From Lachnospiraceae bacterium (lineage in GTDB: Bacteria; Bacillota; Clostridia; Lachnospirales; Lachnospiraceae), in assembly GCA_045597325.1 (NCBI GenBank), contig JAZLJJ010000011.1, forward strand, positions 14,426 to 78,425: a stretch of DNA of 64,000 nucleotides, given 5' to 3'. Positions 14,057 through 48,276 of the stretch are shown here, piece by piece; position 1 is the first letter of the stretch; every line of letters begins with the position of its first letter. The notes under the pieces are model-generated. The model was not told where the DNA came from. It did no database searches and saw only the letters and a program-made list of their open reading frames with translations. The translations under genes were made by a program, and so were the position numbers.

Positions 14057-14220
14057 ATCTCATAGGTAAGTTCGTCCTATGAGATAAAAAAAGCTCCGCG
14101 GGGATGCACACGCCTGTGCAGAGGAAAAATGTCGCTTCGCGGGGATGCACACGTTTTTGGCCGGGGAAATGGTCGCTTCGCGACGCAAAAGCGGCGCAGC
14201 GTGTCATAAGCAACATGCAT
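14057..14220 (+). repeat. structured ~130-nt intergenic element, copy 1 (diverged, with an internal partial duplication)
   Basis: Starts ATCTCATAGGTAAGTTCGTCCTATGAGATAAAAAAAGCTCCGCGGGGATGCACACGCCTGTGCAGAGGAAAAATGTCGCTTCGCG. The GGGGATGCACACG...GTCGCTTCGCGAC module then repeats, and the 3' hairpin is degenerate. Confidence 0.85.
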
Positions 14221-14387
14221 TCATATACGACAGGCTGTTTTACAATTAACAAAAATGTAACGGTTTTGAATGTTGTTTTGTAACAATCGTTTGATATAAT
14301 GAAACCATAGGAACGAAAATACAATGACAGTATCAACCGACGCATGAGAAAACGCAGAGAATAAAAAGCAATGAGGAGGTAAGGAGT

Positions 14388-15923
14388 ATGATAAAAGATA
14401 TCCTGATAATTGCGGGAATAGCCCTGCTTTTGGCAGCAGTGATTGTGATTACTTTTTTGGCATATCGATATAAAGCGGTACTGCAGACGTTATCGGAAGC
14501 AGAAACGGATTTGGACAAGGCAGAGGTACGGGCCAATCAGGCCGAGGATTTGTATCGGAATTGCAACCGTACCAGGGAAATGACCGAGCAGGAACTGGAA
14601 ACCCTGAAACAGCAGTACGGGAAAGTCAGCAAACTGGCTTATACCGATATGAATTCCGATTTACCGAACAGCCGCATGCTGACGGAGGCATTTGACAAAG
14701 CCATCCGGACGGTCGGACCGTCGACGGGCGCCATCGGTGTTGCCATGTTTGAATTCCGGAATCCGAACGAATCCGGTGTCGGATTTTTCAGCAGAAGTCA
14801 TGCGGAGCTGAAGCAGGAAATGATTCAGCGCCTGAAGAGCGCGCAAAATGAAGCGGACGATCTTCTGGTCAGCATGACCGACAACGCATTTGCCCTGATG
14901 ACGGAGCATGTGTCCATGCGGAAGGATTACGAGGGAAAAATCGATAAATTGTTTAAAATGCTGACGCTGCCGTTAATGAGCAACGGAGTGGAGATTCTGC
15001 CGGTAGTGTACGGAGCGGTGACAATCGCACCGACAGACGGCAATTCCATGCAGTTAGTGATGATGAATCTTGGTCTGGCAATGGATGAGGCCATGACTCA
15101 GAAGGACAGTACATACTGTTTTTATAAGCCCGACATGGCCAAAAAGGTGATGGATGAAATGGAGCGCCAGGGTGCGGTAACGGAGGCTATCCGAAACGAC
15201 AAACTCGAATATTTGCTGACACCGCAGGTCAATCTGGCAAGCGGCCGCAGCGACATTTTCGCACTGACTCCGATGCTTGGCAACGGTGTCAACATTGTCG
15301 GTTCGGAATTGCTGAAAATGCTCGATAACAGCGGAATGTCCATTGTCGTATATGAAAATATGCTTCGCAAGGTTTGTGAGTATTTGCAGCAGTACACCGA
15401 ACAGGGCTATACGGACATTTGCATTACCGTTCCCGTAACGGACCGGATGTTCCAAAACAGAGAGTTTATCAAGACCACATATGACGTTCTTCAGAATTTG
15501 GAAATCGATATGCAGCGCGTTCGATTTGAACTGACGGCCTGCGCGATTACGAAGAATCCGAAGGAAGCAGCGGACAAGATGAGAAAAATGACCAACTTCG
15601 GCGTGCGGTTTGTCCTGAAAACGGAGGGGATTCCGGAGGTTCCGGCGTGGTTGCTGATGAACATGCCGATTGCCGCATGGAAACTGACGAAGGTACGGCA
15701 GGACGGTTTGGATTCGGATGAATTTTCCCGGTTACTGTCGGTTTATGTCAATACGGCACATTCGTTCCGGGCGGATATCATTTGCTCCGGTGTGGATGAC
15801 CCGATTCAGGAAGAACTGCTCCGCGGATGCGGCATGGATTATGCCGAAGGACGCTTGTACGGTGGAGCAATGACCGAGGAACTGATCGGCGGATATCTGG
15901 CAGCACGCGTAAAAACGATGTAA
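14388..15923 (+). CDS. membrane-anchored protein with degenerate GGDEF and degenerate EAL domains
   Basis: 511 aa with an N-terminal TM helix and coiled coil. GGDEF-like region YTDMNSDLPNSRML...SMTDNAFALM (the GGDEF motif is lost). EAL-like region LLTPQVNLASGRSDIFALTP (EAL becomes FAL) ... YAEGRLYG. Confidence 0.7.
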   Translation: MIKDILIIAGIALLLAAVIVITFLAYRYKAVLQTLSEAETDLDKAEVRANQAEDLYRNCNRTREMTEQELETLKQQYGKVSKLAYTDMNSDLPNSRMLTEAFDKAIRTVGPSTGAIGVAMFEFRNPNESGVGFFSRSHAELKQEMIQRLKSAQNEADDLLVSMTDNAFALMTEHVSMRKDYEGKIDKLFKMLTLPLMSNGVEILPVVYGAVTIAPTDGNSMQLVMMNLGLAMDEAMTQKDSTYCFYKPDMAKKVMDEMERQGAVTEAIRNDKLEYLLTPQVNLASGRSDIFALTPMLGNGVNIVGSELLKMLDNSGMSIVVYENMLRKVCEYLQQYTEQGYTDICITVPVTDRMFQNREFIKTTYDVLQNLEIDMQRVRFELTACAITKNPKEAADKMRKMTNFGVRFVLKTEGIPEVPAWLLMNMPIAAWKLTKVRQDGLDSDEFSRLLSVYVNTAHSFRADIICSGVDDPIQEELLRGCGMDYAEGRLYGGAMTEELIGGYLAARVKTM

Positions 15924-16070
15924 AAAAGAAGAGGCTCATTTTGTGACATATGCACGGTTTTTGAACCCATGAAGAAAGGAAACGGCGTAGAGATTTTGTA
16001 CAAATCAAACCAAATCGGAGGCGTCGATTCTGAGACCGGAAGTCTTGCATTTGCATAGGGAAACTGATAC

Positions 16071-16111
16071 AATCAGAGTTACCGAAAAATCTGCGGTGAC
16101 TCTGATTTTTT
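16071..16111 (+). terminator. rho-independent terminator
   Basis: ATCAGAGTTACCG...CGGTGACTCTGAT followed by T7. Confidence 0.8.
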
Positions 16112-16113
16112 TC

Positions 16114-16242
16114 ATCTCATAGGAACGTTCGTCCTATGAGATAAAGAACGCTCCGCGAGGATGCACACGCCTGTGCAGAGGAAAAATGTCGCTTCGCGAC
16201 ACACAGGCGGCGCGAGCATATCGTAAGCGATATGCTTTGTTC
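16114..16242 (+). repeat. structured ~130-nt intergenic element, copy 2
   Basis: ATCTCATAGGAACGTTCGTCCTATGAGATAAAGAACGCTCCGCGAGGATGCACACGCCTGTGCAGAGGAAAAATGTCGCTTCGCGACACACAGGCGGCGCGAGCATATCGTAAGCGATATGCTTTGTTC. Confidence 0.95.
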
Positions 16243-16329
16243 GAAACTTCATTGAATCGATTCATGAAACTCATACAGAACGAATATTGAAGAAAGGTGT
16301 CGGCAGGCAATGCCGATGGTGTGTTTACT

Positions 16330-17301
16330 ATGGAGAAATTTCATGAATTTTGCGAAACGCTGAGAACCGGGACGGAAGAGACAATGGGAACCGGGTATGA
16401 GGTGTCGCTTCGAACGGTGAAGAAGAATAACAATGTGACTTTGACGGGACTGATGATTCGGGAGGATGGGGCCAATGTCATTCCGACCATTTATCTGGAT
16501 CCGTATTATGAGCAGTATCTGGAGGGAAGATTGCTGACGGGAATCGAAGAAGAGATTCTTGATATTTATCGAAAGAACCGTGTGCCCCGGCAGACAGAAC
16601 TGAGTCTGGATTACGAGTCCGTAAAGGAGCGGATTTTCTTTTTGATGATGAATCGCGGCCTGAATCACGAAATGTTAGAATCCATGCCGCATGTGGAAAT
16701 CGGTGATTTGGCGGTTGGATTTCAGTGGATTGTTGATTTGGAGGAACGGCAAATCGGTGCTGTGAGGATTACCGAAGATCAGACGGCCATGTGGAATGTG
16801 ACAACGGAAGAACTGATTCGGGATGCACTGAACAATACGGTGCGTTCCCTGCCGCCGGTGCTGAAAAGCATCGAGGATGTACTGCGGGAAATTCTGATTG
16901 GGGATTCGGGACAGGACGGCAATAAGGAAAATGCGGAGAAACGGGACGAAATCATTCGATTATTGGGAGAAGAGACGGATCGAAAGACATTTCCGATGTA
17001 TGTCCTGTCCAACGAAACCGCACGGCTCGGGGCATCGTCTCTGCTGTCGCTTCCGTTTCTGAATCGGTTCCGCGATACCATCGGAGAGGATTTTTGGATT
17101 CTTCCGTCCAGCATTCATGAGGTCATTCTGGTTCCGGAATCGGAAGTGGAAGACCGGGAAAAACTGAAACAGATGGTACGGGAAATCAACGAGACCCAGG
17201 TGCCGATTCAGGAATTTTTGTCGGATGAGGTGTATCTGTACAGTGAATTTGAGAAACTGATACCCGATTCGTTCCGGACAAGACTGCTGCAGGCCGGTTG
17301 A
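16330..17301 (+). CDS. hypothetical protein, DUF5688-like
   Basis: The ORF is open from 16297 and the first ATG is at 16330. The N-terminus ...KKNNNVTLTGLMIREDGANVIPTIYLDPYYEQY resembles DUF5688 proteins of Lachnospiraceae (recall only). Start uncertain and RBS weak. Confidence 0.5.
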   Translation: MEKFHEFCETLRTGTEETMGTGYEVSLRTVKKNNNVTLTGLMIREDGANVIPTIYLDPYYEQYLEGRLLTGIEEEILDIYRKNRVPRQTELSLDYESVKERIFFLMMNRGLNHEMLESMPHVEIGDLAVGFQWIVDLEERQIGAVRITEDQTAMWNVTTEELIRDALNNTVRSLPPVLKSIEDVLREILIGDSGQDGNKENAEKRDEIIRLLGEETDRKTFPMYVLSNETARLGASSLLSLPFLNRFRDTIGEDFWILPSSIHEVILVPESEVEDREKLKQMVREINETQVPIQEFLSDEVYLYSEFEKLIPDSFRTRLLQAG

Positions 17302-17420
17302 TGCTGTTTGAGCAAGACTGCTGCAGGCAGCTGACGTTGTTTGAGCAAGACTACTGCAGGCCGGTTGACGCTGTTCGGACAAGACTGCTGCAGGCCGGCT
17401 GACACTGTTCGGGCAAAATG
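17281..17420. repeat. tandem repeat, 33-34 bp x 4, starting inside the last codons of the upstream CDS
   Basis: CAAGACTGCTGCAGG recurs at 17289, 17323, 17356 and 17390. Unit 1 holds the TGA stop (17299-17301). Confidence 0.9.
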
Positions 17421-17478
17421 TATTGAGAAGTATCGGAAAAAGAAAATGCCGTACCCGTTCGGGTACGGCAATCGGCAA

Positions 17479-17551
17479 TGCGCCTGAAGGGATTCGAACC
17501 CCCGACCATTGGCTTCGGAAGCCACTACTCTATCCACTGAGCTACAAGCGC
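17479..17551 (-). tRNA. tRNA-Arg (anticodon CCG)
   Basis: The reverse complement folds as GCGCTTG-TA-GCTC-AGTGGATA-GAGT-A-GTGGC-TTCCGAA-GCCAA-TGGTC-GGGGG-TTCGAAT-CCCTT-CAGGCGC-A. A hairpin GCCGTACCCG-TTC-GGGTACGGC plus T-run lies downstream on the - strand (17445-17470). Confidence 0.85.
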
Positions 17552-17625
17552 AGATGCATTTGACGAACGAAAAAGCGGAGTTTCGGAACCCGGAACAGGC
17601 GGCTCTCGTTCTGTCACTGCCCCGT

Positions 17626-17654
17626 ATGATACCACATTTGCCGAATAAAGTAAA
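17626..17654 (-). promoter_or_regulatory. candidate promoter for tRNA-Arg
   Basis: On the - strand: TTTACT, 17 nt, TATCAT with TG at the extended -10 position. Confidence 0.45.
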
Positions 17655-17710
17655 GCATATCTTGAAAGAAAACGAGAGAACGGATATCTTACGACCGCGG
17701 CGGTTGAAAC

Positions 17711-17808
17711 GTGAGAGAACGGAAGCCGGGGAGAGAACGGAAGCAGGCGGGAACGGAAGCAGGCGGGAACGGAAGCCGGGAGAGAACGGAAACAGAGCAA
17801 GAACGAAC
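17711..17808. repeat. short tandem repeats of GAACGGAAGC(A/C)GG, ~16-19 bp x 5
   Basis: gagagaacggaagccgggga / gagaacggaagcaggcgg / gaacggaagcaggcgg / gaacggaagccggga / gagaacggaaacagagc. Confidence 0.85.
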
Positions 17809-17960
17809 TCATGGCGGGAATGACAGCAGAAAATCAACACACTCGGGAAAGAAATATCATATCGGACCGCAGAAACATCATATCATACATTGTTTTTCCG
17901 TCCGGCAAACGGTACAGTGGAAGAAAAATGTTCGCTGAAGCGGACAGATGGGAGAAGGTT

Positions 17961-18914
17961 ATGATTCGATTCGGTATTATGGGATGCGGTTCGATTGCGA
18001 GAAGTTTTTGCGACGGAGCGTCACATGCAAATGATGCAGAGGTCGTTGCGGTAGCCAGCAAGAGCCTGGAGCGTGCGAAGGCACTGGCGGACGAAAAGGG
18101 AATCCGTCGGGCATACGGAGACTACGAAGAACTGTTGAACGACCCGGAAGTGGATGCGGTATATATAGCGACGACAACCAATTATCATTATGAGAATGTA
18201 AAACAGTGTCTGGCGGCTGGGAAGCATGTTCTGTGCGAAAAAGCCATGGTGGAAACCGAGGCGCGTGCGAGAGAACTGTTTGCCCTGGCAGCGGAAAAGA
18301 AACTGTTTCTGATGGAAGGCATGTGGTCCCGATTCCAGCCGAAAACCAAAAAGGTAAGGGAATGGGTGACCGGCGGTGCCATCGGAGACGTTGTCTGCAT
18401 GCAGGCCACTATCGGATTCGGACCGAAGCGGGACATGACCAACCGATTCTTTAATCCGGATCTCGGCGGCGGCGCATGGTATGATATCGGCGTGTATCTG
18501 GCGGATTTGCTGCCGTACTTCGTCGATCAGGAGCTGGTGGATATTTCCTGCGATATGACCTGCGCGGATTCCGGCGTCGATGCGGTTTTGAATATCAACA
18601 TGAAACTGACGTCCTGTCTTGCCAACGGTCAGGCGAGTCTGTATTGCAGAATGCCGGAGACCTGTTATATATACGGAACCGACGGAATGATTGTCATTCC
18701 CGGAATTCATTTTGGAGGAGAAGCGATTCGCTATGATGCTCAGGGAGCGGAGGCAGAACGCTTTGAGGATCCGGAGCCGTACCGGTTCTGTTATGAAATC
18801 AATGAAGTTACGGAATGCATTACGGCGGGACGGCTGACCAGTGAAACGGACAGCCCGGAAATGACCTATGCGACAAGCCGTCTGTATGACCGTTTTTGCC
18901 CAATCAAAAAGTAA
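17961..18914 (+). CDS. Gfo/Idh/MocA family oxidoreductase
   Basis: Rossmann N-terminus MIRFGIMGCGSIARSF and VLCEKAM motif. ATG 17961 has a GGAGAAGG RBS (the ORF is open from 17811). Confidence 0.85.
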   Translation: MIRFGIMGCGSIARSFCDGASHANDAEVVAVASKSLERAKALADEKGIRRAYGDYEELLNDPEVDAVYIATTTNYHYENVKQCLAAGKHVLCEKAMVETEARARELFALAAEKKLFLMEGMWSRFQPKTKKVREWVTGGAIGDVVCMQATIGFGPKRDMTNRFFNPDLGGGAWYDIGVYLADLLPYFVDQELVDISCDMTCADSGVDAVLNINMKLTSCLANGQASLYCRMPETCYIYGTDGMIVIPGIHFGGEAIRYDAQGAEAERFEDPEPYRFCYEINEVTECITAGRLTSETDSPEMTYATSRLYDRFCPIKK

Positions 18915-23843: not shown

Positions 23844-23852
23844 GGAGGAACC

Positions 23853-28540: not shown

Positions 28541-28607
28541 TCCGATACCGGCTGACACGACAATTGTTCCGCGGACGGTCCGAACAATGAGTATGAATGG
28601 CAACGGG

Positions 28608-28638
28608 CCGGGAACCGCATGTTCCCGGTCCGGTCTTT
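28608..28638 (+). terminator. terminator-like hairpin after ftsH
   Basis: CCGGGAAC-CGCAT-GTTCCCGG followed by TCCGGTCTTT (a weak T-tract). Confidence 0.5.
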
Positions 28639-28768
28639 ATCTCATAGGAAAGTTCGTCCTATGAGATAAAAAAACGCTTCGCGAGGATGCACACGCCTGT
28701 GCAGAGGAAAAATGTCGCTTCGCGACGCACAGGCGGCGCGAGCATATCGCAAGCGATATGCTTTGTTC
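28639..28768 (+). repeat. structured ~130-nt intergenic element, copy 3
   Basis: Near-identical to copies 4-6, from ATCTCATAGGAAAGTTCGTCCTATGAGAT to GAGCATATCGCAAGCGATATGCTTTGTTC. Confidence 0.95.
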
Positions 28769-31848: not shown

Positions 31849-32787
31849 ATGCAGTATTGCTTTGGAATCGATGTCGGCGGAACGACTATCAAGTGCGGTC
31901 TGTTCAATAGCATCGGAGAAGTTTTGGATAAATGGGAAATTCCGACAGACAGAGATGCCGACGGAGTCAAAATCCCCGGCGACATTGCCGCTTCCATTCA
32001 GCTTAAAATGGCGGAAAAGAACCTGACCGGGGAACAGCTGAGCGGTGTCGGAATCGGAGTTCCCGGCCCGGTATTGGACGACGGAACGGTTCTTTTGTGC
32101 CCGAATCTCGGATGGAAGAAACTCAACATTCGCACTATTATGGAGCAGATGCTTGGGGTGCCGGTTCGCGTCGGAAATGATGCCAACGTGGCGGCTCTCG
32201 GAGAACAGTGGAAGGGCGGCGGACGCGGCTTTTCCGATATGATGATGGTAACGCTCGGAACCGGTGTCGGCGGCGGTCTGATTTTAAATAAGAAAATTGT
32301 TTGCGGAAGCAACGGTGCGGCGGCGGAGCTGGGTCATATCATCGTCAATTCCGAGGAAACGGATTGCTGCGGTTGCGGCGGTCACGGTCATTTGGAACAA
32401 TACGCATCGGCAACGGGAATTGTACGGATGGCGAAGAAGAAACTCGCTTCCGAGTCGGTCATTTCCACATTGCACGGGTATGAGAATCTGACGGCAAAGG
32501 ACATTTTCGATGAGGCGAAAAAGGGTGATTCGGTTGCTCTGGAGCTGGTCGATATGCTCGGCAAATATCTGGCAATGGCGTTGTCCCACGTGGCTGCGGT
32601 TGTCGATCCGGTAGCGTTTGTTATCGGCGGCGGAGTCAGCAGAGCGGGAAGTATTTTGATTGATGCGATTGAGCGTCATTACAATGAGAATCTGATGGAA
32701 ATGCTGAAGGGTAAAGTGTTCCGGCTGGCGGAACTCGGCAACGATGCCGGCATTTTCGGTGCGGCCAGAATGGTTCTCGGAGAATAA
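31849..32787 (+). CDS. glk: ROK-family glucokinase
   Basis: GIDVGGTTIK, ROK zinc motif CGCGGHGHLEQY, GGGV... Confidence 0.88.
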   Translation: MQYCFGIDVGGTTIKCGLFNSIGEVLDKWEIPTDRDADGVKIPGDIAASIQLKMAEKNLTGEQLSGVGIGVPGPVLDDGTVLLCPNLGWKKLNIRTIMEQMLGVPVRVGNDANVAALGEQWKGGGRGFSDMMMVTLGTGVGGGLILNKKIVCGSNGAAAELGHIIVNSEETDCCGCGGHGHLEQYASATGIVRMAKKKLASESVISTLHGYENLTAKDIFDEAKKGDSVALELVDMLGKYLAMALSHVAAVVDPVAFVIGGGVSRAGSILIDAIERHYNENLMEMLKGKVFRLAELGNDAGIFGAARMVLGE

Positions 32788-32799
32788 ACGGGCGGGAAT

Positions 32800-32908
32800 C
32801 CGAACGGAAGTCGGAACCGGCCGAACAGGCAGAAGTCGGAACCGGCCGAACAGGCAAAAGTCGGAACCGGCTGAACAGACGGAAGTCGGAACCGGCCGAA
32901 CAGGCAAA
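32800..32908. repeat. tandem repeat, 25 bp x 4, between the glk stop and the murB RBS
   Basis: GAAGTCGGAACCGG(C/T)(C/T)GAACAG(G/A)C recurs with starts at 32807, 32832, 32857 and 32882. Confidence 0.9.
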
Positions 32909-32928
32909 AAAAGAAAACAGGAGCGGTC

Positions 32929-33852
32929 ATGATGACAAACGAGCAAAAGCGACAACTGGAAATGCTGTACAGCACACAGGGCGTGTGCCGGTTTGAGGAA
33001 CCGATGGCGGAACATACGACGTTTCGTATCGGCGGACCGGCCGAGATCTGGCTTGTGCCGGACTCGGTGGAGCAGCTGCAGAAGACCGTGACCTTTTTGA
33101 AACAGGAAGGAATCCGTATGCAGATTCTCGGAAACGGAAGCAATGTCCTTGTTTCCGACGAGGGAGTTCGCGGAGCGGTTATCCGGATGGAAGACCGTCG
33201 GAGCAAAGTACTGTATGATACTGACGGAGAGGTGACAATGGCGACCGCACCGGCGGGGATGTCGCTGTCCGCCTTTGCCCGGGAAGTATGTGACAAAGGA
33301 TATGCGGAAATGGAATATGCGACGGGAATTCCGGGAAGCGTCGGCGGTGCGATTGTTATGAATGCCGGGGCATACGAAGGGGAAATCCGAAATCAGCTGC
33401 AGTCGGCCAAAGTTCTGACGGAAGACGGCGAGATTGTAAATCTGACCGCAGAGGATTTGAAACTGTCGTACCGATACAGCATCATTCCGGAGAAGCGGTA
33501 TCTGGTGCTGAGCGGAACATTTGCCCTGAAACCGGGAAATCGGGACGAAATCCGTGCCAAGGTGCTGGATTTGGCAACGAGGCGCAGGGAGAAGCAGCCG
33601 TTGGAATACCCCAGCGCAGGCAGTACATTTAAGCGGCCGGAAGGAAATTATGCAGGGAAGCTGATTCAGGAGTCCGGTTTGCGGGGATATCGTGTCGGGG
33701 ATGCCATGGTGTCCGAAAAGCATTGCGGTTTTGTCATTAATGCGGGTGCCGCGACGGCATCGGAGGTAAAACAGTTGATTGCCGATGTGCAGCGCATCGT
33801 ACAGGAGAAGACCGGCATTTTGCTGGAGCCGGAAGTGAAATTTCTGGAATAA
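32929..33852 (+). CDS. murB: UDP-N-acetylenolpyruvoylglucosamine reductase
   Basis: TFRIGGPAE, GNGSNVLV, PSAGSTFKRP, VSEKHCGFVIN. Confidence 0.93.
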   Translation: MMTNEQKRQLEMLYSTQGVCRFEEPMAEHTTFRIGGPAEIWLVPDSVEQLQKTVTFLKQEGIRMQILGNGSNVLVSDEGVRGAVIRMEDRRSKVLYDTDGEVTMATAPAGMSLSAFAREVCDKGYAEMEYATGIPGSVGGAIVMNAGAYEGEIRNQLQSAKVLTEDGEIVNLTAEDLKLSYRYSIIPEKRYLVLSGTFALKPGNRDEIRAKVLDLATRRREKQPLEYPSAGSTFKRPEGNYAGKLIQESGLRGYRVGDAMVSEKHCGFVINAGAATASEVKQLIADVQRIVQEKTGILLEPEVKFLE

Positions 33853-35149: not shown

Positions 35150-35193
35150 AGAAGTCCTTCGGGTCACCTCCGGGTGATTCGGAGGGCTTTTTT
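35150..35193 (+). terminator. rho-independent terminator after crh
   Basis: CCTCCG-GGTGATT-CGGAGG inside a longer GC-rich hairpin, followed by CTTTTTT. Confidence 0.65.
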
Positions 35194-35370
35194 ATCTCAT
35201 AGGAAAGCTCGTCCTATGAGATAAAAAAACGCTCCGCGAGGATGCACACGTCTGTGCAGAGGAAAAATGTCGCTTCGCGACGCACAGGCGGCGCGAGCAT
35301 ATCGCAAGCGATATGCTTTGTTCTGTCATAGGAAAGTTCGTCCTATGAGATAAAAAAACATTCCGCGAGG
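35194..35370 (+). repeat. structured ~130-nt intergenic element, copy 4, plus a second partial unit (hairpin + A-run + CATTCCGCGAGG)
   Basis: A full unit is followed by TGTCATAGGAAAGTTCGTCCTATGAGATAAAAAAACATTCCGCGAGG. Confidence 0.95.
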
Positions 35371-35479
35371 AATAAAAGAACACCTTCAATAGAAGAATTT
35401 GGTCTTGTCAAATGAGCTATATTTGTGTTACATTGTTTTTGTTTCTTCAACACGTAGTGAAACGGAAGGGGAAAAGATA

Positions 35480-37693
35480 ATGAATCAAAAAACAGTAAAA
35501 AAATGGATGTGCTTACTCAGTGTGCTGTGTTGTCTGATGCTCGGTAACCGGACGACAGGGACGGCTTTGGCAGAGGCTGAAGTACCGGATACCGTAACAG
35601 CAGAGGTGGCAGCGAAAGAAACTACGGAAACAGCGAAAGAGACTACGGATGCGGAGCCGGTGGCAGCAGTGGATGAATCATTTGCAGAAACCACAGAGGC
35701 CACCAATATTGCAAGCGGTACCGGCTGGTATTTGGATCGTGCCGGATGCCTGCATCTTACAGGAAAAATAGAAGAAATTGGCTGGAAAGATTACAAATCG
35801 AATATTATAACAGTTATCGCTGAGACGGGTTCATCACTCGGACAGGATGGAAGAAAAGTGTTTATGGATTGTAATAATCTCGTATCTGCTGACTTAAGTA
35901 AGTTGGATACGTCGAATGTACTTGATATGTCCGATATGTTTAACGGATGTTATTCGTTAACAACATTGGATGTCAGTACATGGGATACGTCGCATGTGGC
36001 ACATTTCATTCGTATGTTTTACGACTGTACAGTATTAACGACATTGGATGTCAGTGAGTGGGATATGTCGGGCGCGATATTTATTGATGACATGTTTGGG
36101 GAGTGTCGTGCATTAACAACCTTGGATGTCAGTAAGTGGCGTACACCGCATTTATACAGCGCGACATATACGTTTTTTCGTTGTAGAAAATTAACGACCC
36201 TGGATGTCAGCAATTGGGATACATCGAACGTGACGGATATGAGCGGAATATTTGATGGTTGCGAGGCAGTGAAGGAATTGGATGTCAGCAAGTGGGATAC
36301 GTCAAACGTGACGAGAATGGGCAAAATGTTTATGTGCTGTTATTCCGTAACGGAATTGGACGTCAGCAAGTGGAATGTATCAAACGTGACGAGTATGCAG
36401 AACATGTTCAATGAGTGCTCGGCTTTATCGGAATTGGATGTCAGCAAGTGGAATGTATCAAACGTGACCAATATGAGCAACATGTTTAAGCGTTGCAGTT
36501 CGTTGACGGCACCGGCTGTCAGCAATTGGGACATGTCAAGCGTGACAGATATGGATTACATGTTTTCATATTGCAGTTCATTAACTACACTGGATCTCAG
36601 CGGGTGGGATATCTCGAAAGTGAAAAGACTGGATGACTTTGTTTGGGAGAGTAATTCGCTTCATACGATTATTTGGCCCAAACAGGTAAAGGATGATCTT
36701 AGGCTGAAATGGCTGGCAGAGGAATTGCTCGAGTATTGCCCTGTATGGTGTGATTCCAAAACGGGGAAGATGTATTCTGATGAGAAGGTAATGCAGAAAT
36801 TATCCGGTTCGGTGACACTTGTTGTCCATGGCATTGATATCCGGATAAGTAATGGTTGGGAGGGAGTTATCCTTAAGTGGACTCCGGTAGCAGGCAGCCC
36901 GGTAACGGTCTTTCGTAAGGAAGCCGATATTTATCGAAATTCATCCGACGATTTGAGTGGTCTGGATTACACTAGGTATAATGGCAAGTGGACGAAAATG
37001 GCAACCACGACGGAAGGGGTGTATTATGACAAAGAGGTAACAAACGCAAAAGGATATGATTATATTGTGTTGCGAAACAATGCGACAACGCCGCGGTCGA
37101 TACCTCTGAATATATGCCGTTATGTTCAGCCTCCGACGATAGAGTCAGTGACCAATGTGGCCGGCGGAGTGAAGGTGAGCTGGTCGTCTGAGAGCTATAG
37201 GCCGGACGGATTCTTCGTGTATCGCAAAGACACTCAGAACGGTACGTGGCACATGATTGGCTCTACCCAAAAGAATCTGACCTATACGGATACAACCGTG
37301 GAAAACGGAGTAGTATACTATTATGCCGTGAAAGAATTCTATAAAGAGACGAAAACGTACCGAAGCTACAGTGCTTCCAGTTCCGCAAAGAATACAGTTT
37401 ATGCGAAGAATGTATTTATTTCCGCGATTTCCAATCCGCGTCCCGGTGATTTCACGGTGGTTCATTCCGTAAACGACAAGGCAACCGGATACCAGATTGC
37501 ATACAGTACCAATTCCAATATGAGCGGCTCCAAGTACGTGACTCAGGCGGGAGGAAACTATACAACCATTAAGGCAACCGGACTGACAAAGGGCAAGACA
37601 TATTATGTCATGGTACGCCCGTATAAGACCGTCGCCGGTTACACCTTCTACGGTGCATGGAGTGCCAAGAAGGTGGTTACCGTTACGAAGTAA
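35480..37693 (+). CDS. secreted surface protein: DUF285/BspA-type leucine-rich repeats + FN3-like repeats
   Basis: Signal peptide MNQKTVKKWMCLLSVLCCLM...ALAEA. About 10 copies of a 25-aa repeat L..LDVS.WDTSNVT.M..MF..C (about 35900-36640). C-terminal modules such as GVKVSWS...G(Y/F).VYRKDT..GTW..IG....LTYTDTTVENGVVYYYAVKA are FN3-like. Confidence 0.8.
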   Translation: MNQKTVKKWMCLLSVLCCLMLGNRTTGTALAEAEVPDTVTAEVAAKETTETAKETTDAEPVAAVDESFAETTEATNIASGTGWYLDRAGCLHLTGKIEEIGWKDYKSNIITVIAETGSSLGQDGRKVFMDCNNLVSADLSKLDTSNVLDMSDMFNGCYSLTTLDVSTWDTSHVAHFIRMFYDCTVLTTLDVSEWDMSGAIFIDDMFGECRALTTLDVSKWRTPHLYSATYTFFRCRKLTTLDVSNWDTSNVTDMSGIFDGCEAVKELDVSKWDTSNVTRMGKMFMCCYSVTELDVSKWNVSNVTSMQNMFNECSALSELDVSKWNVSNVTNMSNMFKRCSSLTAPAVSNWDMSSVTDMDYMFSYCSSLTTLDLSGWDISKVKRLDDFVWESNSLHTIIWPKQVKDDLRLKWLAEELLEYCPVWCDSKTGKMYSDEKVMQKLSGSVTLVVHGIDIRISNGWEGVILKWTPVAGSPVTVFRKEADIYRNSSDDLSGLDYTRYNGKWTKMATTTEGVYYDKEVTNAKGYDYIVLRNNATTPRSIPLNICRYVQPPTIESVTNVAGGVKVSWSSESYRPDGFFVYRKDTQNGTWHMIGSTQKNLTYTDTTVENGVVYYYAVKEFYKETKTYRSYSASSSAKNTVYAKNVFISAISNPRPGDFTVVHSVNDKATGYQIAYSTNSNMSGSKYVTQAGGNYTTIKATGLTKGKTYYVMVRPYKTVAGYTFYGAWSAKKVVTVTK

Positions 37694-41257: not shown

Positions 41258-42417
41258 ATGAGAAGATTTATGTTGTTACTTTTGTCGGTTTTCTTGCTGG
41301 CAAGCGTATCTGCTTGTGGGAAGACGGATAAAAATGATACGCAGAGGCAAGATGACAAACAAAAGACCACTCAAATACCGACGGTGGCACCGACTGCAAC
41401 GCAAGTGCCGTCACCGATGCCTACAAAAGAAACAACTATTCCAACAAACCCGCCGACACCGGAACCAACGGATGGTGTGATTCTAAAACGGGGAAAATGT
41501 ATTCCGATGTGAAGCCATTGCAAGCAATATCCGGTCCGGTGACACTTATTTGTCATGGCATTTCTGTTCAAGTAGGAAATGGTTGGGAAGGAGTTACCAT
41601 TAAATGGACTCCGATACAGGGACAATCGGTAACGGTATATCGTAAAAGGATGTATCTTGAGCAAGACCCATCTGCCGATTGGAATGGTACGAGAAGTTAT
41701 GACCTCGACACAGAGTGGACGAAACTGGCGACTACGACGGCAGGAGGGTATTATGATAAATCGGTTACAAACGGAGACGGATATGAGTATCGTGCGGTAC
41801 TAAACAAGGCGAAAACACCGCAGCGGACGTATTCGAGTATATGCCGTTACGTTCAAGCACCGACAATCCAGTCGGTGACCAATGTGGCCGGCGGAGTGAA
41901 GGTGAGTTGGTCGGCAGTGGATGGTGCAAACGGATACATAGTATATCGCAAAGACACTCAGGCAGGAACATGGCATATGATTGGTTCCACACAGAAGAAT
42001 CTGACCTATACGGATACAACCGTGGAGAACGGAGTGGTATATTATTATGCCATCAAGGCATTCTTTTATGAGATGGGAAAATCCAGAAGTTACAGTGCTT
42101 CCAGTTCTGCTAAAAACACGGTTTATGTGAAGAACGTATTCATTTCGTCCATTGCAAATCCGCGTCCCGGTGATTTCACGGTGGTTCATTCCGTCAATGA
42201 CAAAGCAACCGGATACCAGATTGCATACAGTACCAATTCCGATATGAGCGGTTCCAAGTACGTAACTCAGGCAGGTGGAAGTTATACGACTATTAAGGCA
42301 ACCGGACTGACAAAGGGCAAGACATATTACGTCATGGTACGCCCGTATAAGATCGTCGCCGGTTATACCTTCTACGGTGCATGGAGCGCCAAGAAAACGA
42401 TTACGTTGACGAAGTAG
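41258..42417 (+). pseudogene. lipoprotein signal/PT-linker ORF (41258..41512) out of frame with an FN3-like ORF (41497..42417): either a frameshifted paralog of the C-terminus of 35480..37693 or a -1 frameshift-dependent gene
   Basis: Lipobox LLASVSAC and a Pro/Thr linker in frame A. Frame B is homologous to residues ~WCDSKTGKMYSD...VTVTK of the upstream surface protein. The two frames overlap by 16 nt, and the overlap contains G_GGA_AAA. Confidence 0.6.
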
Positions 42418-42445
42418 ATAAGTAAATTCATGGCAATACAAACTA

Positions 42446-42476
42446 AGACCTGTCGCTCTCCGCGGCAGGTCTTTTT
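42446..42476 (+). terminator. rho-independent terminator
   Basis: AGACCTG-TCGCTCTCCGCGG-CAGGTCT followed by T5. Confidence 0.8.
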
Positions 42477-42625
42477 ATCTCATAGGAAAGTTCGTCCTAT
42501 GAGATAAAAAACGCTCCGCGAGGATGCACACGCCTGTGCAGAGGAAAAATGTCGCTTCGCGACGCACAGGCGGCGCGAGCATATCGCAAGCGATATGCTT
42601 TGTTCTGACATGAGATATAGGACAA
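42477..42625 (+). repeat. structured ~130-nt intergenic element, copy 5 (plus a decayed second hairpin)
   Basis: A full unit 42477-42606, then TGACATGAGATATAGGACAAAACG. Confidence 0.95.
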
Positions 42626-43743: not shown

Positions 43744-43774
43744 ATTAATTCCTCCCTTAAAAATAATTTGTTTT

Positions 43775-43880
43775 CCGATACAGAAATAATTTTGCCACGA
43801 TACAGAAATTATTTCCGCAATACAATAAATTATTTCCGTAATACAATAAATAATCGTTGCCACAGTACAGAAACAACTTG
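43775..43880. repeat. five imperfect ~21-bp direct repeats upstream of the DMT transporter gene
   Basis: CCGATACAGAAATAATTTTG / CCACGATACAGAAATTATTT / CCGCAATACAATAAATTATTT / CCGTAATACAATAAATAATCGTTG / CCACAGTACAGAAACAACTTG. Confidence 0.75.
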
Positions 43881-44111
43881 TTACTGCAATACCCCACAAC
43901 ATTGAGGATTATAATAAAAAGAAAAAACAATGTCAATCAGTGATTTTGAGCATCCCGGCCGTTATCGCCGGCAAACCTCATTACGCCGGCCTGCCGTCGT
44001 TGCCGGCAAACCGGCCCTCCCTCATTGCAACAAAACCGGCCGGCTGTCGTTAGGGGAAAACCGGCCGAGTGTCATTTGGAAAATCAGTCGAACAGGTTAT
44101 GAAAAATCGGT

Positions 44112-44858
44112 TCAGTAAGGGGACGGATAGCCGGCTTCGGCTTTCGCGACCGCGTCTTCCAATGTCATGCCGGCAAAGTCCTGCGCCGGGAACAGGCGAC
44201 CGCAGCGGCCGTCATCCACAAAGGCACCGACCACGATTCCGGGAATGGTGCTTTCCGGTGCGTTAGGTGCGTTGGGACCGCCGAGATCGGTACGGCACCA
44301 GCCGGGATCGGCCAGATTGATTAACACGTTGCCGCCCTGCAGCTTGCTTCCGAGGTCCACGGTGAATTTATCCAGCCCCGCTTTGCTGGCGGAATAGCCG
44401 GCCTGCTCGGGCTCCAGACGGATTCCGCTTGTCGTGTTGACAATTCGGCCGAATCCGGCTTCCAGCATTTTCGGAAGAAAATGATAGCAAATCATTGCGG
44501 GTGCAATGGTATTGATTTTACAGCTTTCCAAATAGTCCGAAACGGGTGTGGCAAAATAATCGGTCCGATAGGCAATCTGAATGCCGGCATTATTCAGAAC
44601 AATGTCCACACGAACACCGAGTGCGTCAATGTACTGCAGCATGCCTTCCACAGCATCGGGGTCGCTGAGTTCGCAGGAAACGCCGTATGCCTGCACGCCG
44701 AGTGCACGAACCTCGGCCAGAACGGCTTCGGTATGCTCCGGTTTGCGGCTGTGAAGAATCAGATTGCAGCCCATTTTGGCCATAAACAGCGCGGACAAAC
44801 GTCCGATTCCGCGGGACGCTCCGGTAATCAGAGCCCAACGGTTTTGTACTGTAACCAT
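44112..44858 (-). CDS. SDR-family oxidoreductase
   Basis: TGASRGIG glycine motif and YSASK catalytic motif, 248 aa. Confidence 0.88.
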   Translation of the reverse strand: MVTVQNRWALITGASRGIGRLSALFMAKMGCNLILHSRKPEHTEAVLAEVRALGVQAYGVSCELSDPDAVEGMLQYIDALGVRVDIVLNNAGIQIAYRTDYFATPVSDYLESCKINTIAPAMICYHFLPKMLEAGFGRIVNTTSGIRLEPEQAGYSASKAGLDKFTVDLGSKLQGGNVLINLADPGWCRTDLGGPNAPNAPESTIPGIVVGAFVDDGRCGRLFPAQDFAGMTLEDAVAKAEAGYPSPY

Positions 44859-44876
44859 AGTATGCTCCTTCCTGAT

Positions 44877-46058
44877 TTACAGCGTTGCGTGAGCAGCGAT
44901 TTCATAGATTTTGCGAATGTCTTCGGAACGGAGAGAAACGAATCCGCCGGTCGCTCCGGTGTCGCCGAGACCAAACTTTTCTACAAGTGTAGAAATATCG
45001 CTTTCCTTGGCACCGAGTTCCGTAAAGTTAATCGGCATTCCGATTTCATGAAGGAAGCTGCGGAACGCCCGAATTCCCGCCAGAGCGGTTTCTTTCGGAT
45101 TTTCAAAGTTCATCGGACAACCGAATACGCGGGTCGCCATTTGCGCAAACCGCATTACATTGTGGTCGCAGACATATTCCATCCATGCCGGCATAATGAC
45201 GGCCAGTCCGGCACCGTGAGCACAGTCGTACAGACCGGACAGCTCATGCTCGATTCCGTGGCTGTTCCAGTCCTGCTCGCGTCCGACTCCGACCAGGTTG
45301 GTATGGGCAACGGTTCCGGCCCACATGATATTGGCGCGGGCTTCGTAGTTGTTCGGGTCAGCCATAACACGCTTCGTTTCCTTGAGCATGGTGATGAGGA
45401 CAGCTTCGCACAGACGGTCGGTGATTTCCACATCGGTTGTATTGGTGAAATACCGCTCAAATACGTGAGCGCAAATGTCTGTCGCACCGCAGGCGGTCTG
45501 GTACGGCGGGAGTGTGCAGGTGAGTTCCGGATTCATAATCGAAAATCTCGGGCGAATCAACGGCGAGCCGGCACCGCGCTTCAAACCGGTTGCTTCCTGG
45601 GTAATTACGGAATCTCCGGAGCCTTCGCTTCCGGCTGCCGCAATGGTCAGAACCGTTGCAACGGGAAGTGCTGCTTCCGGTGATTTTCCGCAATAGAAAT
45701 CCCAGAAATCTCCGCTGTAGGGAACGCCCATGGCAATGGCCTTGGAACTGTCAATGACGGAACCGCCGCCGACGCTTAAGATGAAATCCAAATTGTCGTC
45801 GCGGCACATTTGGATTCCTTTATATACCATTGTATCACGCGGGTTCGGCTGAACTCCGCCAAGTTCTTCGAAGAAAATGCCGGCGTCGGTCAGGGATGCC
45901 CTGACACGGTCCAAAAGACCGGACCGGATGCAGGAACCGGAGCCGTAATGAAGGAGAACGCGGGAACCGCCGTATTTGGCAACGAGACGTCCGCACTCAT
46001 TTTCACGTCCGCGTCCGAAAACAAATTCGGTAGGACTGCAGAAACTAAAATTATCCAT
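44877..46058 (-). CDS. iron-containing alcohol dehydrogenase (butanol dehydrogenase/YqhD-like)
   Basis: 393 aa. GGGSVIDSSKAIA and the histidine cluster HGIEHELS...HGAGLA. Lies in an operon with the SDR gene. Confidence 0.88.
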   Translation of the reverse strand: MDNFSFCSPTEFVFGRGRENECGRLVAKYGGSRVLLHYGSGSCIRSGLLDRVRASLTDAGIFFEELGGVQPNPRDTMVYKGIQMCRDDNLDFILSVGGGSVIDSSKAIAMGVPYSGDFWDFYCGKSPEAALPVATVLTIAAAGSEGSGDSVITQEATGLKRGAGSPLIRPRFSIMNPELTCTLPPYQTACGATDICAHVFERYFTNTTDVEITDRLCEAVLITMLKETKRVMADPNNYEARANIMWAGTVAHTNLVGVGREQDWNSHGIEHELSGLYDCAHGAGLAVIMPAWMEYVCDHNVMRFAQMATRVFGCPMNFENPKETALAGIRAFRSFLHEIGMPINFTELGAKESDISTLVEKFGLGDTGATGGFVSLRSEDIRKIYEIAAHATL

Positions 46059-46412
46059 ATAAAATACCTCCGTATGGTATGCTGATTTCTTTGATTATAT
46101 CGGAAATTGACGGTTTCGGTCAATGGGGAGGGGTGGAAGTCTATCATATACAACAAAAATAGCATATATGACATGATGGAAATCCGGTGGGAATCGGGAG
46201 GGTACGAGCCGGCAAACGCAGGAAAAATCCGCCAAGCAATGGACGGATTATTTGCATACGCTCGGATATTGACAAAATGCAGGTCATTTTCGTAAAGAAT
46301 GCAAAATGACCGCGAAAAAAGACATGGAAGCCGATTGAAAAATGTGTTATGATGAGAGTGTAAAATATTGTGAGGGAACCGGAGAAATTCCCCGGACAAT
46401 CAGAAAGGCGGG

Positions 46413-47105
46413 ATGTCTATGGAAATACAGGATTTATTGAATAAGGTGGATCACACGTTATTGGCAACAACGGCAACGTGGGAGGAAATTCGTCAGATTT
46501 GCGATGACGGAATGCGCTTCCATACCGCAAGCGTCTGCATTCCCGGCTGCTATGTCGGACCGGCGGCGGACTATGTAAAAGGGGAGGTCCCGATTTGCAC
46601 CGTAATCGGATTTCCGAACGGAAATTCCACGACGGAAGCAAAATGCTTCGAAGCGGCCGATGCGGTAAAAAACGGCGCGTCGGAGATTGACATGGTGATT
46701 AATATCGGTCTGGTGAAGGCGGGGCGGTACAATGAGGTTCTGCGGGAAATTAACCGTGTGAAGGAAGCCTGCGACGGACGATTGCTGAAGGTCATTGTCG
46801 AAACCTGCAAACTGACCGAGGAAGAGAAACTGGAAATGTGCCGCGTGGTATCCGAGTCCGATGCGGATTTCATCAAAACCTCGACCGGTTTCGGCGGAGG
46901 CGGTGCGACGATTCATGACGTTGAACTGATGGTGGAGAACTGCAAGGGCAAACGCGTGAAAGCCGCAGGCGGTATTCAGTCGTTGGAGGATGCCGAGCAT
47001 TTTATCGAAATCGGCGCAGAGCGGCTCGGAACGAGCAAGGTTGTCAACGAAGTCAAATCGATGCTGAATGTGAAGAAACACAGCAATTTGAGTTATTTCT
47101 CATAA
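46413..47105 (+). CDS. deoC: deoxyribose-phosphate aldolase
   Basis: [32 protein letters not shown] (Schiff-base Lys). Confidence 0.92.
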
Positions 47106-47140
47106 GATAAGCGAAACGGTCGGGCGACGAAAGGTGCCGG

Positions 47141-47268
47141 CGAGCGGCCGGAGCGGCGATGTAACAAGGCCGCAGAACGCCGGAGAAACCCGCTCTCGAG
47201 CGGCCGGAGCGGCGATGTGACAAGGCCGCAGAACGCCGGAGGAACCTGCTCTCGAGCGGCCGGAACAG
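47141..47268. repeat. tandem repeat, 56 bp x 2.3, between deoC and deoD
   Basis: CGAGCGGCCGGAGCGGCGATGT(A/G)ACAAGGCCGCAGAACGCCGGAG(A/G)AAC(C/-)C(G/T)CTCT at 47141 and 47197, with a partial unit at 47253. Confidence 0.9.
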
Positions 47269-47296
47269 TATTTACGAAAAAGGACGGTACAGAATA

Positions 47297-48046
47297 ATGG
47301 GAACAAATTATCCTACCCCGCATATTGCCTGCACACCGGATGATTTTGCGAAAACGGTGCTGATGCCGGGCGATCCGCTGCGGGCCAAATTCATAGCGGA
47401 AACGTATCTGAAAGATGCCGTTTTGGTCAATAACGTGCGCGGCGTGAACGGTTACACGGGAACATATGAAGGCACCCGGGTGTCGGTCATGGCCAGCGGT
47501 ATGGGAATGCCGGCAATCGGAATTTACAGCTATGAGCTGTATAATTTCTTCGGCGTGGACAACATTATCCGGATCGGTTCCGCGGGCGCATACCGTGACG
47601 ACATTGCGGTAATGGACCTGGTCATCGGGCAGGGAGCCTGCTACGAAAGCGGATACGCGGGACAGTTTAACCTGCCCGGAACGTACTCCGCCATTGCCGA
47701 TTACAAGCTTCTTTCTACGGCAGTAGAATTAGCGAAATCAAGGAAAATGAAGTATCACGTCGGAAATCTCCTGTCCAGTGATTATTTTTACGGAGATCCC
47801 GGTGCATGGACCGCAGCAGAGCAGCCGGCAGCCGCATGGGGTAAAATGGGAGTGATGGCAGTGGAAATGGAAGCGGCGGCATTGTACATGAATGCGGCGC
47901 GCGCCGGAAAGAGGGCACTGGCCATCTGTACGGTGTCCGATCATTTGCTCCGCGAGGAACACATTTCCGCAGAGGAACGCCAGCTGTCGCTGACCGAAAT
48001 GATTGAATTGGCACTGCAGACGGCGGTGGCAATGGACCGCGAATAA
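47297..48046 (+). CDS. deoD: purine nucleoside phosphorylase, DeoD type
   Basis: VLMPGDPLRAKFIAETYL...NNVRG..GYTGTY.G..VSVM.SGMGMP..GIYS.EL. Confidence 0.93.
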   Translation: MGTNYPTPHIACTPDDFAKTVLMPGDPLRAKFIAETYLKDAVLVNNVRGVNGYTGTYEGTRVSVMASGMGMPAIGIYSYELYNFFGVDNIIRIGSAGAYRDDIAVMDLVIGQGACYESGYAGQFNLPGTYSAIADYKLLSTAVELAKSRKMKYHVGNLLSSDYFYGDPGAWTAAEQPAAAWGKMGVMAVEMEAAALYMNAARAGKRALAICTVSDHLLREEHISAEERQLSLTEMIELALQTAVAMDRE

Positions 48047-48067
48047 TAAAAAGACGGAAAATGAGAC

Positions 48068-48097
48068 CCCGGCTTCGATGAGGAGCCGGGATTTTTT
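48068..48097 (+). terminator. rho-independent terminator after deoD
   Basis: CCCGGCT-TCGATGAGG-AGCCGGG-A-T6. Confidence 0.85.
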
Positions 48098-48276
48098 ATC
48101 TCACAGGAAAGTTCGTCCTGTGAGATAAAAAACGCTCCGCGAGAATGCACACGCCTGTGCAGAGGAAAGATGTCGCTTCGCGACGCACAGGCGGCGCGAG
48201 CATATCGCAAGCGATATGCTTTGTTCTCTCACAGGAAAGTTCGTCCTGTGAGAAAAAAACGCTCCGCGAGGATGCA
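48098..48276 (+). repeat. structured ~130-nt intergenic element, copy 6, plus a second hairpin unit; both hairpins carry compensatory changes
   Basis: CTCACAGGAAAGTTCGTCCTGTGAG (twice) where the other copies have CTCATAGGAAAGTTCGTCCTATGAG. Confidence 0.95.

Follow-up and report, generated by a model that had tools for sequence, protein, structure and literature searches.

Introduction

A gene-less 128-nt repeat, which we found in six intergenic arrays on a 64,000-nt stretch of the chromosome of a Lachnospiraceae bacterium (GenBank assembly GCA_045597325.1, contig JAZLJJ010000011.1, positions 14,426 to 78,425; this whole stretch is referred to here as the window, and coordinates count from its first nucleotide), has its closest described counterparts in the derivatives of IS200/IS605 insertion sequences with respect to mechanism, and in the pneumococcal repeats BOX and SPRITE with respect to general character. 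Excision of IS200/IS605 elements needs a motif adjacent to the left end and a "guide" inside that end, and gene-less derivatives, the palindrome-associated transposable elements (PATEs), exist in this family (PMC10055086). Group IIC introns are inserted just downstream of terminator stem-loops and engage in short base-pairing with their 5' flank (PMC1702495). The repeat of the window is a previously undescribed family of miniature non-autonomous elements in gut Clostridia; very probably, it is mobile and homes to the T-runs of intrinsic terminators.

As is the case for the PATEs of the IS200/IS605 family, the element lacks genes, terminal inverted repeats and a target duplication, possesses hairpins at or near both ends, and differs in presence between genomes in a seamless fashion. 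Like them, it always faces the same way relative to a short conserved motif that directly precedes it and outlasts the insertion, and it lies mostly on the strand exposed in single-stranded form by lagging-strand synthesis; its left end contains an A-run complementary to this motif, a putative counterpart of their guide. With the pneumococcal BOX, RUP and SPRITE repeats (PMC3049150) it shares restriction to certain lineages, a length of <200 nt, heavy folding and a slow turnover between close genomes; it is modular like BOX (A-Bn-C) and, like SPRITE (ends AAAA/TTTT), tied to gene 3' ends and terminator-like in appearance. However, its sequence is unrelated to those of the pneumococcal repeats, its G+C content is about 50% whereas they are AT-rich, and it leaves the native terminator in place and follows directly behind it. 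No empty site is available for SPRITE (PMC3049150), whereas the insertion point of the present element and the seamlessness of its insertion are defined. Group IIC introns resemble it in being inserted behind intrinsic terminator stem-loops in the orientation of the gene; unlike the element, they are ribozymes of at least 400 nt with domains I-VI and usually a reverse transcriptase. The bcr1 repeats of the Bacillus cereus group are folded sequences of about 155 nt whose TTTAT target is reportedly duplicated at both ends. The element is comparable to them as a Firmicute repeat of similar size with a predicted stable fold and a T-rich target ending in AT, and differs from them in the missing target duplication.

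Six Same-Strand Arrays in the Window

A preliminary description of the window had listed six copies, all on the + strand. Each of these positions indeed holds the repeat; the loci are, however, not single copies throughout and form six same-strand arrays with 8-9 units in total. A 42-nt core matched with at most one mismatch occurs 5 times in the window and not at all in 100 shuffled sequences, and the remaining copy (copy 1, at 14057) was detected by a repeat finder and by the covariance model. The near-identity noted earlier holds for copies 2-6, which differ pairwise at 2-8 of about 128 positions (94-98% identity); the differences are private to single copies and thus form a star-like pattern. 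The consensus given in the preliminary description is accurate, except that its first "A" belongs to the flanking DNA, as judged from the comparison with an empty site that also fixes the unit length at 128 nt (42478-42605 or 42479-42606).

Each full unit consists of two modules, A and B. Array 1 (14057-14225; model score 123 bits), directly behind the terminator of a tRNA-Pro(agg) gene, is a composite with an internal junction: a module A (14058-14108) is followed by a truncated module B of the consensus type ending at about 14141, and then by a second module B (14142-14225) that is complete, divergent and subfamily-2-like. Arrays 2 (16114-16242; 162 bits) and 3 (28639-28768) are single units, the former behind the terminator of a GGDEF/EAL gene (14388-15923) and the latter between the ftsH terminator and uvrC. 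In array 4, a full consensus-type unit directly behind the HPr terminator (unit a, 35194-35323; 174 bits) is abutted end to start by a degenerate unit b (35324-35372) possessing module A only, i.e., the 5' hairpin, the A-run and a small hairpin with a GCGA loop. Array 5 holds the reference unit (42478-42605), a 128-nt insertion with boundaries that are exact apart from a 1-nt ambiguity. Array 6 starts behind the terminator of the purine-nucleoside phosphorylase gene with a full unit a (48098-48227), absent from four related contigs, and continues with unit b (48228-48353), in which a module A (48228-48276) precedes a decayed module-B remnant (48277-48353) whose 3' part is common to the relatives. 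All of these arrays lie on the + strand.

Units within arrays are joined exactly end to start, with the junctions GTTC|TCTCACAGG and GTTC|TGTCATAGG. In arrays 1, 4 and 6 as well as in loci L002 and L005, the terminator-proximal unit is near the consensus while the downstream unit is more diverged, and old units have decayed, as exemplified by the remnant in array 6. This array is also a partial exception to the pattern, since a private compensatory pair is common to both of its hairpin 1 copies and points to local conversion. Partial units always consist of module A, and the remnant found in relatives begins exactly at the A|B border.

Occupied and Empty Sites in Related Genomes

When one genome per species was searched for an exact 24-mer core, the only genome with matches was the metagenome-assembled genome (MAG) Lachnospiraceae JAZUGQ01, with seven stretches; several of its contigs end inside arrays. 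Cluster look-ups revealed that this MAG carries the syntenic region of the window. Its contigs L033 and L034 align to window positions 23.7-58.5 kb with 90-95% identity, mostly 92-93%, a range from which the divergent leucine-rich repeat (LRR)/two-component region is excluded. Contigs L009, L031, L032 and L035 are similarly close to the window. Two of the MAG units are identical to one another and 99% identical to units of the window; like the private differences between copies, this speaks for a burst-like spread.

A comparison of occupied with empty sites, as proposed in the preliminary description, showed that presence of the element differs between genomes that are about 92-93% identical: it is absent from them at three of four shared sites, one of which is a clean empty site. 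Along the 35 kb of synteny, four arrays in the window stand against one in the MAG, the latter belonging to another subfamily; turnover among these close relatives is rapid. Site 5 is the clean case. The window reads TTTTTAT, followed by the 128-nt unit and GACATGAG; the corresponding sequence is GGTCTTTTTAT|GACATGAG in the MAG (L033) and GGTCTTTTTAT|GATATAGG in a third relative (L035). There is no target duplication and an ambiguity of 1 nt. At site 6, between the purine-nucleoside phosphorylase gene and trpS, the young unit and the subsequent module A are missing from four related contigs; the MAG, L031 and L032 retain only the older module-B remnant, and L035 has a different sequence in which the contig ends. 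The MAG has no element at site 3 either, where its spacer measures 153 nt vs 297 nt in the window. At site 4, the window, the MAG and L009 hold different versions of the element.

Two further sequences at site 5 deserve mention. The TGACATGAGAT stretch behind array 5 was considered as an old remnant of the repeat and rejected, since it is native flank that is also present in the empty sites. Within this native right flank (L033, 20555-20620), the MAG has two copies of a 31-nt unit (GAGATATAGGACAAAANGTGNTGATAAAAACC) and the window a single copy.

A second group of carriers came from a BLAST search of a phage collection, which yielded 26 human-faecal scaffolds labelled "UNVERIFIED Bacteriophage sp." with units about 70-89% identical to ours. 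Since these scaffolds (including L036-L051; MT835472, MT835487, MT835858 and others) carry housekeeping genes, i.e., licT/phosphotransferase system genes, ileS, aspartokinase, a gene of the EPSP-synthase family (aroA/murA type) and SpoIIE, they are fragments of bacterial chromosomes from a different Clostridia lineage, referred to below as the second host lineage. The element is missing at the corresponding sites of distant relatives, with about 59% identity in WhiA or 78% in S18. Scans of viral contigs gave no matches, a metagenome scan with a gapped pattern gave one chance match in unrelated high-GC DNA, and a plasmid collection gave one weak partial match. Exact-protein look-ups with the window's purine-nucleoside phosphorylase and HPr and with the cluster members P0287 and P0282 returned no record.

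The Landing Site Is the 3' Edge of a Terminator T-run

Every array of the window starts directly behind the hairpin and T-run of an intrinsic terminator. At array 5, the target (42445-42477, + strand) comprises the terminator hairpin, TTTTT and then A, immediately 5' of the array; the equivalent + strand targets of the other arrays lie at 14025-14057, 16081-16113, 28600-28638, 35157-35193 and 48066-48097. This placement at the 3' edge of the T-run, together with an A-run complementary to it, is the defining feature of the element and had been left out of the preliminary description. A hairpin (dG -11 to -24) followed by three to eight T residues adjoins 12 of the 13 primary arrays (window and related MAG), and a hairpin with four to nine T residues and a purine adjoins 15 of the 16 units in the second host lineage. 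In all, 28 of the 29 arrays read begin right behind a hairpin, a T-run and a purine. The units are co-oriented with the T-run and with the upstream gene that it terminates. TTTTAT sites in the window are occupied in 4 of 7 cases when a terminator hairpin precedes them vs 0 of 17 without one, and within a 34-kb stretch roughly every second strong terminator is occupied.

The sequence TAAAAAA, located at the 3' foot of hairpin 1 and invariant, is complementary to the TTTTTT-purine target, and at least six contiguous pairs with the flank can be formed in 17 of 27 units. The boundary of the element is fixed by the behavior of two neighboring alignment columns: column 10, its first base, covaries with its partner (8 C-G vs 20 U-A pairs), while column 9, in the flank, holds A or sometimes G and faces a T that never varies.

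Across the window, the + strand is the G-rich (leading) one. The element lies on the G-rich strand in 6/6 window arrays, 6/7 MAG loci and 16/16 units of the second lineage. Four or five arrays of the window and the related MAG lie behind tRNA genes, and one lies behind rpsR.

In a related MAG (GCA_017441265.1; L021, 19700-20249), an IS200-type Y1 transposase gene has its left end a few bases behind an intrinsic T8 terminator; the resemblance to the landing site of the repeat is anecdotal.

Anatomy, Folding and Covariation

The unit has a G+C content of about 50% and folds into a structure far more stable than that of shuffled sequence (z = -7.8 for the + and -7.3 for the - strand). Module A comprises hairpin 1, the A-run and hairpin 2; module B comprises hairpin 3, with its 11-nt bulge, and hairpin 4. 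In the reference unit (all features on the + strand), hairpin 1 (42477-42505) has a 10-bp stem and a 9-nt loop starting with GGAAA and is followed by the A-run (42506-42511; A6-7 across copies) and by hairpin 2 (42513-42527; GCTCC-GCGA-GGA(T)GC). The 9-bp outer helix of hairpin 3 (42531-42539 with 42564-42572) is interrupted on one side by the 11-nt bulge AGAGGAAAAAT (42540-42550) and encloses a 5-bp inner hairpin (42551-42563). The block GGCGCGAG connects hairpin 3 to hairpin 4 (42578-42599; 10 bp, 22 nt, no bulge), and a 3' tail TTGTTC (42600-42605; consensus tail TTTGTTC) closes the unit. Written as sequence, its left end is TCTCATAGG...TAAAAAACGCTCCGCGAGGATGC and its right end GGCGCGAG-hairpin-TTTGTTC.

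To assess these helices, 31 units from the two host lineages were aligned to the covariance model (A7). Among the aligned stem cells, 96.9% pair, and 27 of 38 pairs change on both sides: six in hairpin 1, eight in hairpin 3, four in the inner hairpin and all nine of nine in hairpin 4. None of 500 shuffles matched the observed values, and slid registers paired only to 25-53%. The helices are therefore strongly supported as being under structural constraint. Covariation backs the 5' hairpin, the inner GTCGC/GCGAC hairpin and the 3' palindrome of the preliminary description, and its pairing CGCCTGTGC/GCACAGGCG emerges as a long helix. The long-range helix GCTC(C)GCG/CGCGAGC proposed there fails, since it varies on its 3' side only and without compensating changes, and the idea of two mutually exclusive pairings fails too, because the partner for TGCACA/TGTGCA is absent in other subfamilies; a riboswitch-like alternative pairing of this kind was rejected on this ground.

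Some parts of the unit do not vary. Hairpin 2 is without any variation and belongs to the invariant block TAAAAAACGCTCCGCG(A)GGATGC(A/G)CAC; further invariant blocks are AGGAAA in the loop of hairpin 1, A..GG in the bulge, and GGCG(C)GAG. These blocks point to a putative binding partner. The sequence CGCT(C/T)CGCGA is common to hairpin 2 and the inner hairpin, and no other likeness exists among the hairpins. Wobble pairs (18 G.U vs 12 A.C; 6 vs 7 in an earlier count) show no clear strand asymmetry and are uninformative as to which strand folds and as to RNA vs single-stranded DNA. In one MAG copy (L001, 5343-5371), the 9-nt loop of hairpin 1 is reverse-complemented (ACGAACTTT for AAAGTTCGT) on an unchanged stem; this is a flip of the palindrome centre.

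As stated in the preliminary description, the unit contains no credible open reading frame (ORF): none is conserved across the subfamilies, whose frames are offset by a 1-nt indel. A search for a sigma-70-like promoter inside the unit found none. The repeat had not been recognized there as any Rfam family, and it indeed has no match in Rfam 15 at the gathering threshold or at E <= 10; the scan reported only tRNAs at gathering score and, at E <= 10, spurious microRNA and small RNA matches far below threshold. A full-text search for the invariant 16-mer gave no match in the papers covered.

A Proposed Single-Stranded Route to Terminator T-runs

We put the probability at roughly 0.55 that the repeat is a non-autonomous, gene-less 128-nt element that integrates seamlessly at terminator T-runs by a single-stranded route of the IS200/IS605 type; the IS200/IS605-type chemistry in particular is a tentative proposal, to which we give somewhat less than an even chance. 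In this scheme, the strand bearing the terminator hairpin and the T-run would be exposed as single-stranded DNA in replication, and the invariant TAAAAAA would pair with the T-run, a pairing that would select the target and set its 3' end beside the first base of hairpin 1. A trans-acting enzyme, most plausibly an HUH/Y1 transposase of the IS200/IS605 "peel-and-paste" kind that acts on the conserved blocks, would then join both without creating a target duplication. Since the target would remain intact 5' of the insert, it would be open to repeated insertion, and each new unit would separate the older one from the terminator; such re-use of a retained target predicts exact head-to-tail arrays in which the terminator-proximal unit is the youngest, and the arrays have this polarity. 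The high occupancy of terminators could be explained by landing behind them being nearly harmless to the host.

We favor the IS200/IS605-type route because this family alone combines the absence of inverted repeats and of duplication with end hairpins, a retained flanking motif and a guide in the left end. Gene-less PATE derivatives provide a precedent (PMC10055086), and the almost constant location of the element on the strand exposed during lagging-strand synthesis, as well as the IS200-type element behind a terminator T-run in the related MAG, point in the same direction.

Several observations weigh against this scheme. With respect to the target, one unit (L042) lacks the T-run and another (L007a) has only a weak hairpin. 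Most of the hairpin-less TTTTAT sites are intragenic, so that selection against insertions there contributes to the contrast in occupancy. The strand bias is confounded with gene orientation, and the skew at L003 is near zero. With respect to the evidence for mobility, the differences at sites 3 and 4 are complex, without a clean indel at the former, and the direction of the indels (insertion in the window or excision in relatives) cannot be proved. With respect to the enzyme, a tblastn search with the IS200 TnpA over 500 kb of loci recovered only the query's own locus (L021), whose ends are different, and neither a cognate tnpA or tnpB nor any other partner gene was found in the loci compared; isolated hairpin-1 half-sites that could mark the ends of a larger parent element were absent from the window and these loci. 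IS200/IS605 elements usually bear similar hairpins at the left and right ends, and the guide of IS608 lies 5' of its hairpin. The two end hairpins of our element, hairpin 1 (ATCTCATAGG...) and hairpin 4 (AGCATATCGC...), are in contrast unrelated in sequence, and its putative guide, the A-run, lies 3' of the first hairpin and would pair over about 7 nt in plain Watson-Crick fashion. The target also differs, being a terminator T-run instead of a 4-5-nt motif, the element is very small (128 nt), and it matches none of the IS605-related RNA families in Rfam.

The preliminary description had listed MITE-, PATE- and REP-like mobile elements as candidates. A mobile element is supported, and its likeness is to the PATEs. 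Classical miniature inverted-repeat transposable elements (MITEs), which derive from DDE transposons, have terminal inverted repeats and a direct target duplication. The ends of the unit, TCTCATAGG... and ...GCTTTGTTC, are not inverted repeats and the clean site is without a duplication, and hence the element is not a classical MITE. Repetitive extragenic palindromic (REP) sequences are imperfect palindromes of 20-40 nt that carry a conserved, GTAG-like tetranucleotide on the 5' side and often form inverted pairs (REPIN/BIME). A REP/RAYT repeat was rejected, as our unit has 128 nt and four different hairpins and its copies are direct and never inverted.

Alternative Explanations

The other candidate of the preliminary description was a structured RNA module attached to 3' UTRs. 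The terminator-like appearance of the unit could reflect a module useful to the host at the RNA level, in which case read-through transcripts would include the element and its mobility would be secondary. The hairpins of such a module might terminate transcription in a back-up or bidirectional capacity, block 3' exonucleases or offer a platform for protein binding, and the invariant blocks would be contact sites for protein or RNA. The constant co-orientation with the upstream gene fits this idea, as do hairpin 4 with TTTGTTC on the + strand and the inner hairpin with ATTTTTCC on the - strand, both of which resemble terminators. Some units must be transcribed, since they lie inside operons or directly before the next ribosome-binding site (ftsH|uvrC, L007a). 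The covariation of the helices around specific invariant blocks would also be expected of a functional RNA, and one G.U pair is kept in a five-member subfamily; over all units, however, G.U and A.C wobble pairs are not clearly asymmetric, and the loop of hairpin 1 tolerates inversion in L001. Moreover, the element is placed after and not before a full terminator, has no promoter, decays when old, and is missing at orthologous sites of genomes about 93% identical in which no compensating feature is present. Its spread and the clean indels would remain unexplained. We consider a host-useful RNA module unlikely as the primary explanation; a function in RNA as an added role beside mobility is possible.

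A link to retroelements, in which an RNA copy is placed by the machinery of a group IIC intron or by another reverse transcriptase, would account for insertions just downstream of terminator motifs, where these introns are typically found (PMC1702495). The pairing of the A-run with the 5' flank resembles an exon-binding/intron-binding interaction, and the insertion is seamless and oriented. Yet 128 nt is far below the size of a group II ribozyme, and no reverse transcriptase gene was seen in the surroundings. Group IIC introns are recognized by their ribozyme domains, among them a domain V of 34 nt with an AGC triad and a 2-nt bulge, and by a 5' GUGYG. The unit begins with UCUCAUAGG instead, its hairpin 4 of 22 nt is unbulged, and no Rfam intron family matches even at E <= 10. 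An intron or intron fragment was thus rejected, and the broader link to retroelements appears quite improbable.

Similarly improbable is a catalytic reading, in which the conserved core (A6-CGCUCCGCGAGGAUGC-CAC, the AGNGG bulge and GGCG(C)GAG), which in this framing sits between four freely covarying helices, is a small catalytic or self-processing nucleic acid. It could be a ribozyme or a single-stranded DNA active site cleaving and joining at the junction of T-run and hairpin. If this were true, the element's own 7-nt guide would pick the target, a dedicated transposase would hardly be required or not at all, and the element would represent a new class of guide-carrying, terminator-homing mini-element.

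The shape of hairpin 1, two inverted 11-nt arms around an asymmetric 7-nt spacer, also resembles that of a tyrosine recombinase core (lox, dif or attC-like), through which small circles could integrate. The order A-B-A in arrays 4 and 6, the inverted spacer in L001 and the recurrent breakpoint at the A|B border fit such site-specific recombination. The clean empty site, however, has no hairpin-1-like core and reads only TTTTTAT|GAC, single insertions leave one hairpin 1 and not two, and the arms covary freely, which is unusual in a protein-binding site. Integron arrays have R''/R' cores (RYYYAAC/GTTRRRY), one site per cassette of about 1 kb, and intI nearby. An attC array was rejected, as the ends of the unit misfit these core sites, the arrays are spaced by 2-12 kb among housekeeping genes (ftsH, uvrC, whiA, HPr, trpS), and no integrase gene is located nearby. 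Recombination of this type strikes us as very improbable. Genes for small RNAs or small proteins, e.g., frames of 19-27 codons from internal ATGs, have GAGG-N5-ATG in the hairpin 3 bulge and a terminator-like 3' hairpin in their favor and can be dismissed almost entirely, given the missing promoter, the loss of the ATG in subfamily 2, the frame-shifting 1-nt indel between subfamilies, stem substitutions that are compensatory and not synonymous, and ORF ends that are set by flanking DNA.

On the preferred reading of a mobile, terminator-homing element, the repeat is a tiny selfish sequence with a legible landing rule: its A-run would pair with the T-run that ends nearly every gene, where insertion does the least harm. 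If the mechanism is confirmed, it offers a route into target choice through structure plus base-pairing in single-strand transposition, and a second, unrelated class of terminator-homing elements beside the group IIC introns. In practical terms, repeats of this type break short-read assemblies of gut Clostridia, as seen from the several contigs that end inside them, and lend themselves to confusion with regulatory RNAs. They are strain markers that evolve fast, and neighboring genes may be affected by them in read-through and in their mRNA 3' ends.

Genomic Setting and Other Repeats

The window is an ordinary piece of Lachnospiraceae chromosome with glgB, glnA, htpG, tRNA genes, ftsH, uvrC, hprK, murB, whiA, the HPr gene, deoC, the purine-nucleoside phosphorylase gene and a class I (Trp/Tyr-type) tRNA synthetase gene, here called trpS. 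Genes for a transposase, an integrase or a reverse transcriptase are absent from the surroundings of the arrays within it. The tRNA-Pro gene upstream of array 1 (13948-14023) carries the unusual anticodon AGG; it was called by ARAGORN and was not reported by Rfam at gathering score. It is 82% identical to tRNA-Pro(cgg) (13733-13808) and may be a decaying duplicate.

Several other repeats are present in the window or its relatives. Between deoC and the phosphorylase gene (47141-47265), a GC-rich 56-nt unit occurs in about 2.3 tandem copies; the insert of about 160 nt that holds them is wholly absent in the close relatives L031 and MAG and is a second, unrelated indel polymorphism. Tandem units are also found between a DUF5688 gene and tRNA-Arg(ccg) (17279-17429; four units of 33-34 nt) and between a ROK-family gene and murB (32783-32932; five 25-nt units, AAGTCGGAACCGGCCGAACAGGCAG), and a 70-nt tandem duplication with 99% identity (53339-53478) lies at the end of the ORF 52339-53373. 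In a distant relative (L011, 10330-10400, and L012-L020), TTCGGAGCGGGCAGCCCTGC occurs in two direct copies behind the rpsR terminator and may be another small terminator-associated repeat. Finally, the C-terminal parts of two surface-protein genes (BspA-type LRR/DUF285) are paralogous stretches with 77-84% identity (36745-37505 and 41472-42229). These two genes bracket a LytTR two-component cluster, and nowhere in the synteny with the MAG is conservation lower than in this BspA-type LRR/LytTR block (66-85%).

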